NCBI GenBank assembly: GCA_049695975.1
Contig: JBAVTE010000027.1
Span: 32,972 to 96,971 of the forward strand
DNA length: 64,000 nucleotides
Direction of reading: 5' to 3'
Source of the DNA: Minisyncoccia bacterium
GTDB lineage: Bacteria; Patescibacteriota; Minisyncoccia; Phycocordibacterales; GWA1-40-21
The notes under the pieces were generated by a model. That model was not told where the DNA came from and did no database searches. It saw only the letters and a list, made by a program, of their open reading frames with translations. Below are positions 30,577 through 40,459 of this stretch, piece after piece. How positions within the stretch are numbered: position 1 is the stretch's first letter; every line of letters starts with the position of its first letter. The position numbers were made by a program, and so were the translations under genes.

Positions 30577-31800
30577 ATGACAGTTAAACAAAAAAAATCT
30601 CAAAAAGTCTTCGTGGGAATGTCTGGGGGAGTCGACTCTTCCGTTTCTGCAGCACTTTTAAAAAAGGATGGGTATGACGTAACTGGAGTTTTTATAAAAG
30701 TTTGGCAACCTGACTTTGTAGAATGCACTTGGCGAGAAGATAGACTTGACGCGATGAGAGTTTGTGCCAAACTTCACATACCTTTTTTTACACTTGATTT
30801 GGAAAAAGAATATAAAAAAGAAGTCGCTGACTATATGATAGATGAGTACAAAAAAGGAAAAACTCCGAATCCTGATGTAATGTGTAATAAATATGTAAAG
30901 TTCGGCGCTTTTTTTGATTGGGCTATAAAGCAGGGTGCTGATTTTGTGGCGACGGGGCATTATGCACGCGCAAGCAAAGTTCTAGAAGATAGTTCGTCGG
31001 AGTACGGGTTGGCTGCCCAGCGGGAAGTCAACCTCAAGTCTCGGCCTCGCTCGTCCGCTCCAGAAAGCGGACACCTGTGGCCTGTCTCGGCCTGCGAAGC
31101 CTCCAAAAACGAACTATCTTCTAGGACTTTACCTACCCAACTCTTGGCCGGCAAAGACAAGAATAAAGACCAATCATATTTTCTCTGGACTCTTACTCAA
31201 AAGCAATTACAAAAAACACTTTTTCCGATAGGCAACACCGAAAAACCAGAGGTCAGAAAAATTGCCAAAAAGCTCGGACTTTCGACTGCGGAGAAAAAGG
31301 ATAGTCAGGGTGTTTGCTTCCTCGGCAAATTTGATATGAAAGATTTTTTGAATCATTATATAAAAGAATGTCTTGGAAAAGTTTTAAATGAAAAAGGGGA
31401 GGTGGTAGGTAGTCATAATGGAGCAATATTTCTCACAATAGGGCAGAGACATGGTTTTAAAATTATAAAAAAAACAAATTCGAGCAAACCACTTTTTGTG
31501 ATAGCAAAAAATTTACAAAAAAATACAATTACTGTTTCTGAAAATCCAGTACAAGATACAGGTGAGTCCAAAGAAATTGAAATAGAGAAAGTCAGCTGGA
31601 CGGGAGGAGTGGATCCAGATTTATCAAAAAGATATTTTGCCAGAATCCGATATAGACAAACGCTTTTACCGTGTAAAATCAAAAAAAGTGTTGGTAGCGT
31701 TGTCATTTCTTTTGAAGAATCACAAAAAGCAGTTTCCTCGGGACAATCTCTAGTAATATATGATGGGGAAGTATGCCTCGGTGGCGGAATAATAAAATAA
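30577..31800 (+). CDS. mnmA: tRNA-specific 2-thiouridylase MnmA, carrying an in-frame ~50-aa GC-rich insertion
   Basis: PP-loop SGGVDSS, DQSYFLW, and C-terminal beta-barrel domain. A foreign segment lies between GHYARA and LAGKDKNKDQSYF. Confidence 0.88.
   Translation: MTVKQKKSQKVFVGMSGGVDSSVSAALLKKDGYDVTGVFIKVWQPDFVECTWREDRLDAMRVCAKLHIPFFTLDLEKEYKKEVADYMIDEYKKGKTPNPDVMCNKYVKFGAFFDWAIKQGADFVATGHYARASKVLEDSSSEYGLAAQREVNLKSRPRSSAPESGHLWPVSACEASKNELSSRTLPTQLLAGKDKNKDQSYFLWTLTQKQLQKTLFPIGNTEKPEVRKIAKKLGLSTAEKKDSQGVCFLGKFDMKDFLNHYIKECLGKVLNEKGEVVGSHNGAIFLTIGQRHGFKIIKKTNSSKPLFVIAKNLQKNTITVSENPVQDTGESKEIEIEKVSWTGGVDPDLSKRYFARIRYRQTLLPCKIKKSVGSVVISFEESQKAVSSGQSLVIYDGEVCLGGGIIK
30978..31128. mobile_element. 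151-bp GC-rich insertion with 19-bp terminal inverted repeats, in-frame within mnmA (MITE-like)
   Basis: Left end AGTTCTAGAAGATAGTTCG; right end CGAACTATCTTCTAGGACT (18/19 reverse-complementary). Interior is about 62% GC against about 33% in the host gene. Confidence 0.6.
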
Positions 31801-34575: not shown

Positions 34576-35382
34576 ATGCAAGATAATTACGAGAGATTAG
34601 GTGTATATTATAAAGCTATGAAAAAAAATAAAAAAATACATATTGCCGTTTTATTTGGTGGAAAATCGGCTGAACATGAAGTATCAATTAGGTCGGCACA
34701 AAGCATTTATAATGCTCTTGATAAGCAAAAATATGACATTACTCTTATTGGCATAGATAAAAATGGTGTTTGGATTCCTTTTAATACGGAGAAATTACTT
34801 TCCAGCAAGAGAATACTTTTGAGTGAACAAAATATGAATGTTAGCACAGCTGTAGCCTCTTATGGTACTAATGGAGAATTTTTAGCAAAGAAAGGTAATG
34901 GTGGTATGAAAAAAGTTGACATTGTCTTCCCGGTTCTTCACGGTCCTTTTGGCGAGGACGGCACAATTCAAGGTTTGTTAAAGTTAGCTAATGTCCCTTT
35001 TGTCGGAGCGGGTGTTCTAGGTTCGGCGGTTGGAATGGATAAAGATGTTGCGAAGAGACTTTTACGAGATGCCGGTCTACCGACTGCCCACTTTCATGTT
35101 TATAACGAATATGAGAAAAAAACTATTTCATTTGAAAAAATTAAGGTAAACCTTGGATTACCATTTTTTATTAAACCAGCAAATCTCGGATCTTCTGTTG
35201 GTATCACAAAGGTTCATAATAAAGCTGAATTTTTAAAGGCAATAAATTCTGCATTTCACTATGACAATAAAATCCTTATTGAGGAATATATAAGGGGCAA
35301 GGAAATTGAGTGTTCTGTATTAGGTAATGGAAAGCCAACCGCATCAGTTTGTGGGGAAATTATTCCTCATCAATCCTCCTAG
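34576..35382 (+). pseudogene. ddl: D-alanine-D-alanine ligase, C-terminally truncated (about 95 aa missing)
   Basis: N-terminal and central ATP-grasp domains are intact (VLHGPFGEDGTIQGLL, FIKPANLGSSVGI). It stops just before the expected FYDYEAKY/Mg-binding region, and the truncation coincides with the left edge of the inserted island. Confidence 0.6.
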
Positions 35383-35410
35383 GATAAATAAAGTTAGCAT
35401 CAGTATAGTC

Positions 35411-35476
35411 GGGTCCTTGCGCGTCTGAATTGATATATTTAATATTTCGATTCAGATTGCGCAAGGCCCTTTTTTT
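35411..35476 (+). terminator. Long-stem rho-independent terminator
   Basis: GGGTCCTTGCGCGTCTGAATTGA-loop-TCGATTCAGATTGCGCAAGGCCC followed by TTTTTTT. Confidence 0.7.
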
Positions 35477-35673
35477 ATATTTTTTTATTTTAATTTTTTC
35501 AACTTGGACATGTCATGTCCAAGTCTAATTATCAAGTCTAAACCTTGCTACGCCTTGTAATTCCTGCGGAGGCAGGAATCCATCTTCTCTTCATCCAATC
35601 TTTTTCCGTCTGTTATTGCGAGAAAGTTTCTGACGAAGCAATCAAGTATTTTATCTTCTGACCCTAAAAGTTC

Positions 35674-36270
35674 TTAGCAAGGAATTTCCTTGCTATGTGA
35701 ATTGGAATAGTCTAAAAGATTTTTAATTTCCTTAACATAATTTGGATTTGAAATATCATGGTCTGAGTTTGAAACAATTATTCTCTTTTTCTTACCTTTC
35801 CACAGATCAAAATATTTTTTGTCACCATTTGGAAATAAATCTTTTTCTTCTGAACCACATAAGAATATTGCAGGTGTTTTTGTATTATTAGGAAAATCTT
35901 GTTTTCTAAAAGCAGTAAACCTCCTCCTACCAAGAATTTTTTCTGCTATTTTTGGCAAAAAATTAATATCATTACTGAAATATGGAGATAAAGAACATAA
36001 AATTAGTTTTGAAAAAGTATGATATTTTGTGGACAATACTGCGATATATGCACCGAGAGAAAATGCTAGAATTATAGAGTCATTTTGATAATTTTTATCA
36101 ATAATTTTATTAAAGTCCTCTAGCCATCTTTCTATTGTATTCCATTTCCATTTTGGCTGATAGAATACAACATTATATTTTTTTGATTTTAAATACTCAA
36201 TAAAATCTAAATATGGAGCATCTCTTAAACTTTCACCAAATCCAGGAATGATATAAATTGTTTGTTTCAT
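35674..36270 (-). CDS. Alpha/beta-hydrolase fold protein
   Basis: Nucleophile elbow AFSLGAY and beta-strand start IYIIPGFGES. Start is ATG at 36270 or an upstream TTG at 36342. Confidence 0.65.
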   Translation of the reverse strand: MKQTIYIIPGFGESLRDAPYLDFIEYLKSKKYNVVFYQPKWKWNTIERWLEDFNKIIDKNYQNDSIILAFSLGAYIAVLSTKYHTFSKLILCSLSPYFSNDINFLPKIAEKILGRRRFTAFRKQDFPNNTKTPAIFLCGSEEKDLFPNGDKKYFDLWKGKKKRIIVSNSDHDISNPNYVKEIKNLLDYSNSHSKEIPC

Positions 36271-36370
36271 TGATAGTATTTTATCATATAAATAAAAAAG
36301 AGGTGATACTTTGCCTACTTTTTGAAATTTGAAATAAAACAAGTGTTTTTTCTGTGCATAACACCCCCCA

Positions 36371-36399
36371 TTGACGCTAATTTTACTATTTGTTACAAT
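36371..36399 (+). promoter_or_regulatory. Sigma70-like promoter (TTGACG-17-TACAAT) driving the precursor-peptide operon
   Basis: TTGACG at 36371-36376, 17-nt spacer, TACAAT at 36394-36399. Confidence 0.55.
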
Positions 36400-36472
36400 T
36401 TACAGTAGAAACCTTAGGTGTTCTAAGGTAGAGTAGGTTAGATAAGTTCATTAACAGAGAAAGGAGGTCTTT

Positions 36473-36592
36473 ATGCAGAGCCCAACTAAGAAGATGTTCA
36501 GTAAGAAAACGTTGAAGAACTCGTTTTTGCGGAGGAGGGTGTCTAGGGTCAGGTTGACTCAGGCCCTGAATGCCAGTAAGCCGGGAAGTTAA
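36473..36592 (+). CDS. 39-aa poly-cationic small ORF (candidate RiPP precursor peptide), absent from the ORF track
   Basis: AAAGGAGGT RBS lies 7 nt upstream. Sequence is MQSPTKKMFSKKTLKNSFLRRRVSRVRLTQALNASKPGS (net charge about +11). Directly followed by a hairpin, then the RRE/rSAM genes. Confidence 0.5.
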   Translation: MQSPTKKMFSKKTLKNSFLRRRVSRVRLTQALNASKPGS

Positions 36593-36612
36593 TCCCATAT
36601 TGGTGGTTGTCA

Positions 36613-36651
36613 GGTGGAACGCTCCGTATGAGCGTTCCACCTATTTTTTTT
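36613..36651 (+). terminator. Intrinsic terminator/attenuator between the precursor ORF and maturase genes
   Basis: GGTGGAACGCTC-CGTAT-GAGCGTTCCACC, a perfect 12-bp stem, followed by TATTTTTTTT. Confidence 0.75.
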
Positions 36652-36677
36652 GTTGTTTTTTGAATAAGGAGAATATC

Positions 36678-36887
36678 GTGAATGACAAATATGTAGCTCT
36701 TGTGGAAAACTTTACGTTGAAACAGTCTGTCACTTCTAGTGTCTTGTATTGTCTGAAGAGTGGTGCAATTTATGATCTTTCATTAGATCAAGTCGAGTTC
36801 TACATTTACTTGATGGATCTCAGACTATTGATCAGGTTATTGATAAATACCATAGGAAATCTAGATCCACAGTTGTACAGTTTCTAA
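36678..36887 (+). CDS. PqqD-like RRE (RiPP recognition element) N-terminal fragment, frame-shifted relative to the downstream rSAM
   Basis: GTG start with AAGGAG RBS. YCLKSGAIYDLSLDQVEFYIY matches the PqqD/RRE core. The family continuation (LDGSQTIDQVIDKYHRKSRSTVVQFLNHL) is in the -1 frame, contiguous with ORF 36893. Confidence 0.5.
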   Translation: MNDKYVALVENFTLKQSVTSSVLYCLKSGAIYDLSLDQVEFYIYLMDLRLLIRLLINTIGNLDPQLYSF

Positions 36888-38056
36888 ACCACTTGAAAGG
36901 TATTCAGGCACTGAGACTAATCAACAAACCTGTGCCAAGATTAATGCGACAAAATCTGGTACCTGATAGCCGACTCGAATCAGTTCATTTGGAAGCGAGC
37001 GGTGAATGTAACATGAAGTGTGTTCATTGCTACCAAGCAAAGTATGTCAAATCTGGTGAAAAACTTAATCACCGTGAGATTATACTTCTTCTTGATCAGC
37101 TACAGAATATGCAGGTTAGTAATGTTGGAATCAGTGGTGGTGAACCACTAATGATGCCTGATCTTACGGAAGTTATGAGAGCTATTGAAGCGAGAGATAT
37201 GAGAATCTCAGCTCTCTTTACAAATGGCCTTCTGGTCGACGACAAGTTAATCAAGGAGACGAATGCACTGCGAAGTAAGTTCTCATTCTTCATTAGCCTA
37301 GACTCGATTCCAGGACAGACACTTGCTTTCCGTGGAGTAGGGAAAAGAGCATCTAGGGTGATTCTTGAGCGGATAGTTTCAAAGATTAGGTTGTTAATTT
37401 CCAGCGGTATCAGTGTTGTCATCAATACTGTCGTAAATCTGGAAAATATCAGCTATCTTGATAAGATGTATGATTTGGTTACTGAGCTGAAAGTTGACAG
37501 TTGGAGGCTCGGTTTTCCAAAGATGACACCTGAATTCAAGAAACACAAGAATGGTTTCTATGTTGAATGGAATAGTATTGCTGAACACTGTTTGTCCTTG
37601 CTTCAGCGGCATTTGATAGGAGGCTTACCATTTCATCTGCAGATTGAGTATTTGTTCAGGGAAGAACTCTTTAAACAGGGTATACAAGAGCTATCTGACA
37701 TGGACTTTGTCTGTGATTACGAGGGTCGTCGTTCTGAGTGTTGTGTAAAGCCCAATGGAGATGTCGTCTCTTGTGCGTACTGTTCCGAGTTACCATTGGG
37801 TAACATCAGGAAGTCGTCGATTTGGGATATTTGGTATTCAACTCAAATGAGTGATTTGAAAAAGATCCAGATCAACGACGTGGTAGAGTGCAGGGGATGT
37901 GAGCTTCGTAGTCTTTGCGGAACTGGTTGCCGTGCGAATGCTCACTTTCTTCATGGAGATTTTCACAATGCTAAAGATGATTACGCTTGTTTAGCGGTAG
38001 CTTTCTTTAAGGAGAAAGTGGTCCCTCTTTTGAGGAAGTACAGTATGATTAGTTGA
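36776..38056 (+). CDS. Radical SAM/SPASM-domain peptide-modifying enzyme, with the RRE C-terminal half in-frame upstream of the annotated ATG 36893
   Basis: rSAM cluster CNMKCVHC (CX3CX2C). SPASM cysteines CAYC...CRGCELRSLCGTGC (CX2CX5CX3C). Frame open from 36776. Confidence 0.75.
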   Translation, partial: SFIRSSRVLHLLDGSQTIDQVIDKYHRKSRSTVVQFLNHLKGIQALRLINKPVPRLMRQNLVPDSRLESVHLEASGECNMKCVHCYQAKYVKSGEKLNHREIILLLDQLQNMQVSNVGISGGEPLMMPDLTEVMRAIEARDMRISALFTNGLLVDDKLIKETNALRSKFSFFISLDSIPGQTLAFRGVGKRASRVILERIVSKIRLLISSGISVVINTVVNLENISYLDKMYDLVTELKVDSWRLGFPKMTPEFKKHKNGFYVEWNSIAEHCLSLLQRHLIGGLPFHLQIEYLFREELFKQGIQELSDMDFVCDYEGRRSECCVKPNGDVVSCAYCSELPLGNIRKSSIWDIWYSTQMSDLKKIQINDVVECRGCELRSLCGTGCRANAHFLHGDFHNAKDDYACLAVAFFKEKVVPLLRKYSMIS

Positions 38057-38152
38057 TCTTTTGACACACAAGGTATAATAAAATGCCCACTTTGAAAAAA
38101 GTGGGCATTTATTGTTTGCATTAAGATAAATAATGATTACAATGTACATTAT

Positions 38153-38890
38153 ATGAATAATTATAAAAACTTTTCAAAATATTATGACATGGCTATGGGT
38201 GACAGAACGGCAGAGGGTATATTTATTAAGAAATTAATAAAACAGTATAATTCGAAGGCAAAGACTGTATTAGAATTGGGCTGCGGTACAGGAGCCTTTC
38301 TTAAATATCTCTCAAATCATGGCTATAAAATGGCAGGAATTGATTTATCACAGGAGATGCTAGAAATTGCAAGACAGAAGGTTCCGAATGCTAATCTGTT
38401 ATGTCAAAATATGGCAATTTTTTCCTTGCAATTAAAATTTGATGTTGTTTTGTGTTTATTTGATTCAATAAATCACTTAATTGATTATAATGATTGGGAA
38501 AAGGTTTTTCTCCAGACATATCTACACTTGAATGATAGTGGTTTATTTATCTTTGACATTAATACAAAATCAAAACTAGATATACTTGCAGGGTCCGATC
38601 CAATTGTTAATGAAGTGGATAATAAAATAATTTCTATGAAAGTAATTTTGAAAAATAATATTTATAATTGGAATATTAAAATAGTTGAAAAACAACCAAA
38701 TGATAGCGAAATGATATATTTAGAAAATATTCAAGAACAATCATTTCCAATATCAATGATAGAAAAATCGCTCAAGAAAAATTTTGAAAAGGTTATTAAG
38801 ATTAGTCAAAGTGGTATGCAAGCAACTGAAAATTCTCGACGGGTATACTTCATTTGCCTTAAGAATTTAGAAAATAAATTGAAGAGGTAA
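38153..38890 (+). CDS. Class I SAM-dependent methyltransferase
   Basis: Motif I VLELGCGTGAF and motif II CLFDSINHL. Confidence 0.75.
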   Translation: MNNYKNFSKYYDMAMGDRTAEGIFIKKLIKQYNSKAKTVLELGCGTGAFLKYLSNHGYKMAGIDLSQEMLEIARQKVPNANLLCQNMAIFSLQLKFDVVLCLFDSINHLIDYNDWEKVFLQTYLHLNDSGLFIFDINTKSKLDILAGSDPIVNEVDNKIISMKVILKNNIYNWNIKIVEKQPNDSEMIYLENIQEQSFPISMIEKSLKKNFEKVIKISQSGMQATENSRRVYFICLKNLENKLKR

Positions 38891-38922
38891 TTGGAGTCAG
38901 CCATGCTCTGTAGAAAACACCC

Positions 38923-39258
38923 CTAATAAACAGGCAACACAATCATAATGTTGTGTGTCAAAACCTTTAGAGCCATTTCTCGGCATTGACACCAATATGT
39001 TTTAGAAAGAATTGACTCAGACAGATTCCGTTTCAGCATACTCATCACTGTTTCCGATTGCCATCTCTGACCATATTCCCCCTTGTCGAAATGTTCTACT
39101 ATTTCCCTTCGATATTTTCCGCTAGGCAGTTTCTTTTTTGGACGTCCTATTTTTGGATTAATAATTGAGTGTATCTGCAGTTTTTCTCGTGAATAGACAT
39201 GATTAGATTCACTATCATAACCAGCGTCGGCCGTGATTGTTTTAATGGGAAATTACTA
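38923..39258 (-). pseudogene. IS4/IS5-superfamily DDE transposase, C-terminal fragment only
   Basis: Minus-strand translation gives TITADAGYDSESNHVYSREKLQIHSIINPKIGRPKKKLPSGKYRREIVEHFDKGEYGQRWQSETVMSMLKRNL...VLPVY*. No start codon; stops lie directly upstream. Confidence 0.6.
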
Positions 39259-39263
39259 TATTT

Positions 39264-39295
39264 CATGGCAAGGTCAGACCTTGCCATTTTTTTTA
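39264..39295. repeat. Perfect palindrome CATGGCAAGG-tcaga-CCTTGCCATG plus T8, member of the GCAAGG/CCTTGC hairpin family
   Basis: Related copies at 41523-41545 (TCATGGCAAGGattgtCCTTGAT), 35695-35715 and 7469-7500. Confidence 0.6.
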
Positions 39296-39401
39296 CGACT
39301 GTCATTCCCGCGGAGGCGGGAATCAAGAATAGTTTTATTATTAAGGTTAAGCCTTGCCACGCCTTATTTCTTTTTTTACCATTTATATATATAATAAATA
39401 A

Positions 39402-40310: not shown

Positions 40311-40459
40311 AAATAGGCTTATTTTTTGTCCGCTCCTGAGTAATATGTAATTATCAAGGCTAAAAAAAGCCTTGCTACGCCTCACCCAATACAAGAAAAA
40401 CACTTTAGTTGACAATTACTTGACAATTGAATACAGATTGGTTTACAATAGAGTAACCT

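Follow-up and report, generated by a model that had tools for sequence, protein, structure and literature searches.

A three-gene cassette of a conserved short peptide, a radical-SAM/SPASM enzyme and a methyltransferase, probably of the RiPP type, in CPR bacteria and DPANN archaea

The DNA analyzed here, called the window below, is a stretch of 64,000 nucleotides from a Minisyncoccia bacterium (assembly GCA_049695975.1, contig JBAVTE010000027.1, positions 32,972 to 96,971). At positions 36371 to 38890 of its forward strand lies a cassette in which a 39-codon open reading frame (ORF) is followed by a hairpin, a gene for a radical S-adenosylmethionine (SAM) enzyme with a SPASM domain, here called the maturase, and a gene for a class I SAM-dependent methyltransferase. 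An earlier note, made from the letters of the window, had taken the block for a module producing a peptide that is ribosomally made and then modified post-translationally (RiPP), with a precursor gene, a hairpin, a maturase with a RiPP recognition element (RRE) and a methyltransferase. The module recurs in homologous cassettes, which supports that view. We consider a RiPP-type cassette the likely identity of the locus, a judgment that applies to the kind of system: the radical-SAM enzyme, guided by its RRE, would modify the peptide core, methylation would follow, and the product would be a modified cationic peptide. The features of the locus are as follows.

36371–36399 (+): promoter-like TTGACG-17-TACAAT with an extended -10 TG, matching a sigma-70-like consensus at 10 of 12 positions
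36460–36468 (+): strong Shine-Dalgarno sequence AAAGGAGGT, serving the peptide gene
36473–36592 (+): gene of the precursor peptide, 39 codons and a stop, MQSPTKKMFSKKTLKNSFLRRRVSRVRLTQALNASKPGS; synonymous-change conservation and a gap-free alignment with 35 other peptides
36506–36538 (+): leader motif K12–R22 (KTLKNSFLRRR), presumed RRE-binding segment
36551–36589 (+): core R27–S39 (RLTQALNASKPGS), presumed modification site, from its conservation
36612–36651 (+): GC-rich hairpin of 13 bp (36612–36642) followed by T8, putative leaky intrinsic terminator
36666–36680 (+): start of the maturase gene, with ribosome-binding site AAGGAG and start codon GTG, where homologue alignments begin
36678–36800 (+): 5′ part of the maturase gene, read in frame 1 and holding the first half of the RRE-like N-terminal domain, by homologue match
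36800–36801 (+): frameshift, one base missing between a Phe and a Leu codon (TTC CTA reads TTCTA)
36800–38056 (+): 3′ part of the maturase gene in frame 3, with the rest of the RRE-like domain, the radical-SAM barrel and the SPASM domain, by homologue match and Pfam
37007–37030 (+): radical-SAM motif CX3CX2C (CNMKCVHC)
37889–37930 (+): SPASM motif CX2CX5CX3C
38081–38110 (+): terminator-like hairpin with a weak T tract, 3′ of the maturase gene
38153–38890 (+): class I SAM-dependent methyltransferase, 245 aa, MGB8816175.1 (Pfam Methyltransf_25, E = 2.5e-17); the next gene in the annotation is MGB8816176.1

The 39-codon ORF, which the earlier note had placed at 36473–36592 behind a ribosome-binding site, is, judging by its pattern of coding-type substitutions, a genuine, conserved gene. 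When the codons of the invariant RLTQALN stretch were compared in 10 cassettes, third positions varied in all seven codons and second positions in none of the seven; first-position changes were synonymous only (AGR/CGN and TTR/CTN). The pattern therefore reflects selection on the amino-acid sequence and not on the RNA. The same codon-position test contradicts a non-coding RNA reading of 36400–36650, which was rejected; a search of 36300–36720 against Rfam at E ≤ 10 gave only chance, hairpin-driven matches, and the whole window has no Rfam match at gathering thresholds.

The peptide is rare. An exhaustive profile search of 1.84 billion representative proteins returned only 21 matches at E ≤ 0.001, all of 30 to 63 aa except for a 185-aa protein in which the peptide forms the C-terminal end and whose gene call seems over-extended. 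By word-indexed search, 23 clusters of the peptide were obtained at 90% identity. The window peptide has no match in Pfam or NCBIfam, and exact look-up of the peptide and of the radical-SAM ORF variants showed them to be absent from a protein collection derived from public annotation. Every peptide family member for which DNA was fetched lies directly upstream of a radical-SAM gene. With so few matches and this constant position, the possibility raised in the earlier note that the ORF is a housekeeping protein is ruled out. In addition, a degenerate DNA pattern for VRLTQALNA was scanned in metagenomes and gave 54 matches. Six were true small ORFs, each with a radical-SAM gene about 100 nt downstream and then a methyltransferase gene; the other 48 were rejected as chance matches within unrelated genes or as recurrent short frames such as RSVSFTQAFNASGV. 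The earlier note had asked whether the small ORF stays beside homologous maturases: it does so, together with a hairpin, in 19 of 19 distinct cassettes inspected, a recurrence of the arrangement far beyond chance.

To compare the peptides, we anchored the 36 that were collected on a Leu of the core (L0), from which positions are numbered; no gap was needed. The leader follows the consensus K-x-L-x-x-S-x-L-x-K-R, with K/R at -16 (32 of 36 peptides), L at -14 (28 of 36, with M, I or F in the others), S/A/G at -11 (33 of 36), L/I at -9 (36 of 36) and mostly K/R at -7 and -6. The core consensus is L-x-x-A-(L/I)-(N/H): L0, L/I+4 and N/H+5 occur in all 36 peptides and A+3 in 34. Two types of core can be distinguished. 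Type 1, RLTQALNAS-x-PG(T/S/E), is found in 32 peptides, among them that of the window and that of one Nanoarchaeota cassette; not one of the 32 departs from RLTQ and N. Type 2, QLK(V/I)(A/G)IHPVG, is found in cassettes L009, L146, L149 and L151. The two types have L0, A+3, L/I+4 and N/H+5 in common, and they share the leader pattern and its nine-residue distance from L-9 to L0. Such a conserved leader, set at a constant distance from a conserved core, is as expected of a substrate that a recognition domain grips and measures into an active site. Most C-termini are PG(S/T/E).

In the interval between the peptide and maturase genes, the hairpin and T tract described in the earlier note are present, with a stem of 13 bp at 36612–36642 in place of the 12 bp from 36613 given there. 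Taken from its predicted start as far as the next gene, the transcript folds more stably than 200 of 200 shuffled sequences (z = -3.6). A stable hairpin after the peptide stop codon was present in 10 of the 11 cassettes folded, including one archaeal cassette, and is also visible in L009, in L151 and in a second cassette on L144; these hairpins have stems of 9–13 bp with partly conserved sequence and usually a T-rich tail. In the window, 26 nt separate the T tract from the radical-SAM start codon, and no promoter-like site was found between hairpin and start codon, so the maturase gene would be transcribed by read-through alone. Hairpin conservation and the lack of an intervening promoter-like site support the partial terminator proposed earlier. 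On the Nanoarchaeota contig L144, the second cassette (1–2318), with a different radical-SAM gene, stands in tandem directly upstream; it is preceded by a peptide ORF with a Cys-rich end and by a hairpin whose GGTGGAA...TTCCACC stem is identical to that of the window hairpin.

A classic attenuator is likewise laid out as an ORF followed by a terminator hairpin and then by genes. The small ORF might then be a regulatory leader or ribosome-arrest peptide whose stalling controls read-through of the hairpin, the real substrate of the enzymes lying elsewhere. The distribution of conservation suits such a role: most of it falls in the last ~14 residues, the N-terminal part differs in both sequence and length, and the peptides often end in P-G-(S/T)-stop. 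Arrest peptides of the SecM and TnaC type likewise have a conserved C-terminal part and a variable N-terminus. The distance from stop codon to hairpin, however, ranges from ~4 to 26 nt across cassettes, so a ribosome parked on the stop codon would contact the hairpin inconsistently, which argues against stalled-ribosome control. Nor would arrest need a leader motif held nine residues from the core, and the core is identical in the Nanoarchaeota cassette and in bacterial cassettes despite differing ribosomal tunnels. A shift of core type is moreover accompanied by a change of the third gene between methyltransferase and HEAT-repeat protein, and the maturase has what is modeled as an RRE-like, peptide-binding domain. 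We therefore regard an arrest peptide as quite unlikely and retain a RiPP-type precursor as the preferred reading.

Upstream of the peptide gene, the TTGACG-17-TACAAT element that the earlier note had called a promoter is present. Promoter-like sites in the region are no commoner than in shuffles (19 found versus 17 ± 5.2), so the assignment is plausible but undemonstrated; other cassettes have, as judged by eye, comparable sequences 5′ of the peptide gene. A supposed likeness of the 5′ untranslated region to 23S rRNA was set aside as an impression by eye. The Shine-Dalgarno sequence recurs as a near-identical GAAAGGAGGTGA box before the peptide ORF in L008, L009, L143, L144, L146, L147 and L149.

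The maturase carries the CX3CX2C and CX2CX5CX3C motifs named in the earlier note, and Pfam recognizes both domains (Radical_SAM PF04055, E = 7e-17; SPASM PF13186, E = 1.8e-8). About 89 full-length homologues align with 35–68% identity over 97–100% of the repaired query, and a sharp gap (261 versus 116 bits) separates this family from the next radical-SAM proteins. In 24 diverse homologues, C116, C120 and C123 and eight further Cys residues are invariant. With ligands assigned from the canonical motif, the SPASM domain fits two fully Cys-ligated auxiliary clusters; the eight extra Cys would then serve the clusters as ligands, and a substrate thiolate would find no free site. A contig scan with the maturase alignment was swamped by generic SPASM patterns, the sole true family member among its matches being L009. 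PADLOC viperin matches to the maturase span only the generic radical-SAM core, without the SPASM domain or RRE, and so do not indicate membership of a defence system.

The earlier note had described the RRE as a separate PqqD-like gene in front of the radical-SAM gene. An RRE-like domain is probable, but not as a gene of its own: the homologues are single proteins of ~460 aa with this domain at the N-terminus of the same polypeptide, and the split in the window is due to a frameshift that the note had missed. An AlphaFold2 model of homologue P0001 (predicted local distance difference test score, pLDDT, 93.6) has in its first ~80 residues several short strands and then helices, which we read as an RRE-like winged-helix fold. 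When this model was searched with Foldseek, the best full-length matches were SuiB (E = 4e-19, 466 columns), TigE (E = 7.6e-18) and CteB, at ~16% identity. A sequence-profile search of the PDB gave SkfB (E = 1.3e-18), SuiB (2.5e-17) and CteB (2.2e-14) as the nearest solved proteins, and the profile alignments to CteB and TigE include their N-terminal domains.

The frameshift can be placed exactly. Residues 7–46 of P0001 match 36681–36800 in frame 1, and residues 47–464 match 36800–38053 in frame 3; the two matches share base 36800 and lose no residue, and exactly one base is therefore missing. The remainder of the gene has no stop codon. All of the ~89 homologues are single ORFs and none is split. 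Programmed frameshifting was considered and rejected, as there is no slippery heptamer at 36795–36805 and no homologue is split there. The closest relative, L150 (71% identity), is uninformative, because its assembly has the radical-SAM and methyltransferase genes in several fragments. The window gene is thus either a recent pseudogene or an assembly error. The lost nucleotide lies within the RRE-like domain. Unless the deletion is such an error, the local maturase is inactive or decaying, and the local cassette is probably dead.

The maturase was also compared with curated families. Among the best 25 of 78 matching NCBIfam families, it passes no cut-off and is far below all of them: ScmE, the best, gives 99 bits against a cut-off of 400, the mycofactocin maturase MftC (TIGR03962) 88.5 against 265, PqqE (TIGR02109) 73.7 against 381, and the anaerobic sulfatase-maturating enzymes (TIGR03942) 59.8 against 349. 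The earlier note had allowed that the enzyme might group with the latter or with cofactor maturases; it falls short of their curated cut-offs, and its nearest folds are SuiB, TigE and CteB. Sulfatase-maturating enzymes differ also in having no RRE and in acting on a (C/S)-x-P-x-R motif in the sulfatase; the S-x-P of the present core is not invariant, with ends such as NIGPVPD, NAGDPGT and NQEDPGT. In the literature we found no description of the peptide motif or of the maturase family.

Several known systems resemble the cassette in part. SuiB, which makes streptide from SuiA (PDB 5V1T), is the best full-length structural match, N-terminal RRE included, and likewise has two auxiliary clusters and a short precursor gene directly upstream. 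Identity is, however, only ~16%, streptide requires a Lys-Trp pair whereas Trp is absent from all 36 peptides and the core here is without any aromatic residue, and here the third gene encodes a methyltransferase and the hosts belong to the candidate phyla radiation (CPR) and DPANN. The sactipeptide-type thioether synthases CteB and SkfB (PDB 5WGG and 6EFN) share the cassette logic; SkfB is the closest profile, and CteB aligns including its RRE. They differ in needing a Cys in the core: no Cys position is conserved among the 36 peptides, so these do not qualify as sactipeptides or ranthipeptides. TigE (PDB 8VPO) is a top structural match whose N-terminal domain aligns by sequence profile, although the structural likeness to TigE is not above that to SuiB. 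TigE and TvgB are RRE-radical-SAM-SPASM enzymes that form cyclopropylglycine on aliphatic Val and Ile, in cores without Cys or aromatics (PMC10878394, PMC9062424). Their precursors repeat TVGG or TIGSVS, whereas here the core is single and unrepeated, and identity is ~15%.

The lack of aromatic residues also bears on a proposal of the earlier note, that three-residue cyclophanes (triceptides) are formed on Phe-x-Lys and Phe-x-Arg triads. Triceptide maturases are radical-SAM/SPASM enzymes, and the window peptide does carry FSK and FLR. The two Phe residues, F9 and F18, belong however to the variable leader and are absent from homologues: L001 (GCA_021824045.1, JAKALR010000003.1), L008 and L089 have no aromatic residue there, and the L001 peptide has none over its full length. 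The type-1 core RLTQALNAS contains no aromatic residue either, so a conserved aromatic-x-x motif is missing, and no triceptide-type family is among the best 25 of 78 NCBIfam matches. The triceptide assignment did not survive this comparison, and we rate it as highly improbable.

Also similar in part are mycofactocin (MftA/B/C) and pyrroloquinoline quinone (PQQ; PqqA/D/E), in which a tiny precursor with an invariant core is modified by an RRE-guided radical-SAM/SPASM enzyme in loci without an exporter. The peptide could accordingly be a sacrificial scaffold for a small cofactor or signal, as PqqA and MftA are, which would be a special case of the RiPP-type explanation. As in those two, the core stays invariant although the enzymes share only 40–68% identity; the cassette has no exporter or immunity gene, and the mycofactocin maturase is among the better NCBIfam matches, though below threshold. 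The distance to the MftC and PqqE cut-offs speaks against this proposal, as do the lack of a conserved peptidase or further tailoring enzymes for excision of a cofactor and the lack of a conserved candidate for a cofactor-dependent enzyme nearby. The cassette is furthermore sporadic, sitting amid toxin-antitoxin and defence genes and insertion sequence (IS) remnants, unlike a metabolic cofactor pathway. Its RRE-like domain is fused to the maturase, the mycofactocin precursor ends in Val-Tyr where the present peptides mostly end in PG(S/T/E), and the Glu-x3-Tyr motif of the PQQ precursor is absent from the 36 peptides. A sacrificial scaffold seems unlikely to us, and a modified cationic peptide remains the preferred product.

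The third gene, whose identification as a class I SAM methyltransferase in the earlier note is borne out by Pfam, is a conserved part of the cassette. It is a methyltransferase gene in 17 of the 19 distinct cassettes and a HEAT-repeat gene in two. The methyltransferase gene adjoins the radical-SAM gene in every type-1 cassette and in the type-2 cassettes L009 and L151; the HEAT-repeat protein replaces it in one type-2 subclade with the core IHPVG (L146, 4942–5604; L149, 3271–3873). The closest solved relative of the window enzyme is 1y8c, an uncharacterized SAM-dependent methyltransferase, followed by amino-sugar N,N-dimethyltransferases of the TylM1/DesVI type and, more weakly, BamL. These relatives hint that it acts on nitrogen. 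In NCBIfam the daptide methyltransferase comes nearest, with 52 bits where 175 are required. In the proteusins, too, a ribosomal peptide is acted on by both a radical-SAM enzyme and a class I methyltransferase (the epimerase PoyD and the Asn N-methyltransferase PoyE), and BamL of plantazolicin and the daptide methyltransferase offer related examples; the invariant Asn (or His) of the present core could be N-methylated. PoyD does not belong to the SPASM enzymes. With no NHLP leader here and methyltransferase matches well below the cut-offs, this likeness serves as a lead only. As the earlier note had offered as an alternative, the product may be a basic peptide that is methylated.

A block of ~43% GC, as claimed in the earlier note, was not recovered: 36371–38060, with the peptide and radical-SAM genes, has 40.6% GC, and 38061–38890, with the methyltransferase gene, 28.2%, giving 36.5% overall versus 33% in the flanks. 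GC content at third codon positions (GC3) is 0.70 in the peptide gene, 0.40 in the radical-SAM gene and a host-like 0.26 in the methyltransferase gene. When the window was compared with L001, L004, L008, L143, L145, L147 and L148, the radical-SAM gene was 8–19 GC points above the adjoining methyltransferase gene in seven of the eight cassettes, at host GC contents of 22–68%; in L143 the gap was just 1.5 points.

The ~89 homologous maturases occur in CPR bacteria and DPANN archaea, the named hosts being Nomurabacteria, Kaiserbacteria, Kuenenbacteria, Parcubacteria, Patescibacteria, Nanoarchaeota and Aenigmarchaeota. Flanking genes are unrelated between cassettes and often of toxin-antitoxin or defence type (AbiEii, PIN, HicB, Fic). 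An identical maturase, P0015, is found in two different upstream contexts (L004, L005, L006), and direct repeats of ~640 bp, which encode a 170-aa protein, flank the L005 cassette. The window cassette itself is bordered by short repeat elements, a truncated ddl gene and a transposase remnant of the IS4/IS5 type. All this fits a horizontally moving accessory element. In L006, a 58-nt repeat occurs at the left border of the cassette and in two other places. Many family members are on contigs of only 2.5–3.0 kb, about the size of the cassette, which suggests that assemblies break at cassette borders, through insertion in multiple contexts or varying between strains.

Together with its surroundings, the window cassette lies in what looks like a variable, rearranged island (35383 to 39400). 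The D-Ala-D-Ala ligase gene ddl (34576–35382, +) breaks off after 268 aa, midway through the C-terminal ATP-grasp domain (it covers profile positions 1–108 of 204); a search of the whole window did not recover the missing 3′ part. Immediately downstream of the methyltransferase gene, 38923–39240 (-) encodes the C-terminal ~105 aa of an IS4/IS5-type DDE transposase (...ITADAGYDSESNH...RWQSETVMSMLKR...), the N-terminal two thirds being absent. Short repeats lie at 35540–35582, 39300–39364 and 40367–40382, with copies on both sides of the cassette region. Among the repeats are a palindromic unit, TTCC(C/T)GCGGAGGC(G/A)GGAAT, which translates as 'IPAEAGI', and a 16-nt box, AAGCCTTGC(T/C)ACGCCT, present in three copies. 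Further upstream, a 407-aa ORF (30577–31800, +), taken by eye as tRNA 2-thiouridylase (mnmA), contains a stretch of ~52% GC (peak about 30900–31200) in a genome of 33% GC; the stretch resembles an in-frame insert of ~50 aa (VLEDSSSEYGLAAQREVNLKSRPRSSAPESGHLWPVSACEASKNELSSRTLPTQ) and has no Rfam match.

Coding selection on the peptide, the leader-core register, the co-occurrence of the genes and the domain make-up of the enzyme were observed, and the layout is canonical for SPASM-dependent RiPPs; the conservation pattern and the hosts are unusual. Six points weigh against a RiPP-type cassette. No modification has been observed. An invariant core with a loose leader is the inverse of what most RiPPs show, and is more in keeping with cofactor precursors or regulatory peptides than with antibiotic RiPPs. 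The enzymes of L148 and L009 are 58% identical yet have different cores, so the match between core and enzyme is not simple. Among the cassettes compared there is no conserved protease or exporter. Pfam PqqD matches the N-terminal domains of only 3 of 10 members, and below threshold (E 0.003–0.11), because of which the RRE assignment rests on structure and not on a curated sequence model. Finally, the maturase gene of the window is frameshifted.

From these data we infer the following scheme, including how the leader is bound, which residue is attacked and by what chemistry, what the methyltransferase does and what the product is for. The promoter and the very strong ribosome-binding site would yield a short mRNA for a Lys/Arg-rich peptide of 26–47 residues. 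After its stop codon, the hairpin terminator would let only part of the transcripts pass into the maturase gene; with partial termination, precursor would be in excess over maturase. The maturase would consist of an N-terminal RRE-like winged helix, a radical-SAM barrel and a SPASM domain with two Cys-ligated clusters. Its RRE would bind the leader K-x-L-x-x-S-x-L-x-K-R and so place the core, nine residues on, in the active site. There, a 5′-deoxyadenosyl radical would take hydrogen from a position common to both cores in L-x-x-A-(L/I)-(N/H); the target is most likely one of L0, A+3, L/I+4 and N/H+5. As the core has neither Cys nor aromatic residues, chemistry on aliphatic or polar residues is likely. 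Candidates, in no order of preference, are epimerization, cyclopropanation as by TvgB and TigE, a Thr-O ether, a cross-link to a side-chain nitrogen, which would be new if it joined that of Asn or His, and dehydrogenation. Rotapeptides, made by TqqB, have an ether between Thr-O and the alpha carbon of Gln in a Thr-Gln pair of the core. Here the T-Q pair is invariant in type-1 cores and missing from type-2 cores, which would confine an ether of this kind to type 1. The class I methyltransferase would then methylate the product, most plausibly on nitrogen. As to its role, our guess is a cationic effector peptide in microbial conflict or host interaction.

A more specific proposal is one we put forward tentatively and would not call probable. 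The maturase may carry out an undescribed radical-SAM modification of the Cys- and aromatic-free L-x-x-A-(L/I)-(N/H) core at nine residues from the leader, and the resulting cationic peptide may be exchanged horizontally between CPR and DPANN for interaction with hosts or competitors. One possibility is a cross-link or epimerization of aliphatic residues together with the Asn/His nitrogen, followed by N-methylation.

For the host genome, the finding means that this copy is probably dead and that a peptide gene had been absent from the protein collection derived from public annotation. More widely, little work has been devoted to RiPPs of CPR bacteria and DPANN archaea, whose dealings with their hosts are largely unexplained. 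In a three-gene cassette of ~2.5 kb, an invariant core excludes the radical-SAM cross-links known best: thioether, Lys-Trp and cyclophane. The strict leader-core ruler, together with intact homologues suited to heterologous expression, offers a realistic route to new radical-SAM chemistry, and would give a first molecular handle on a peptide common to ultra-small bacteria and archaea.

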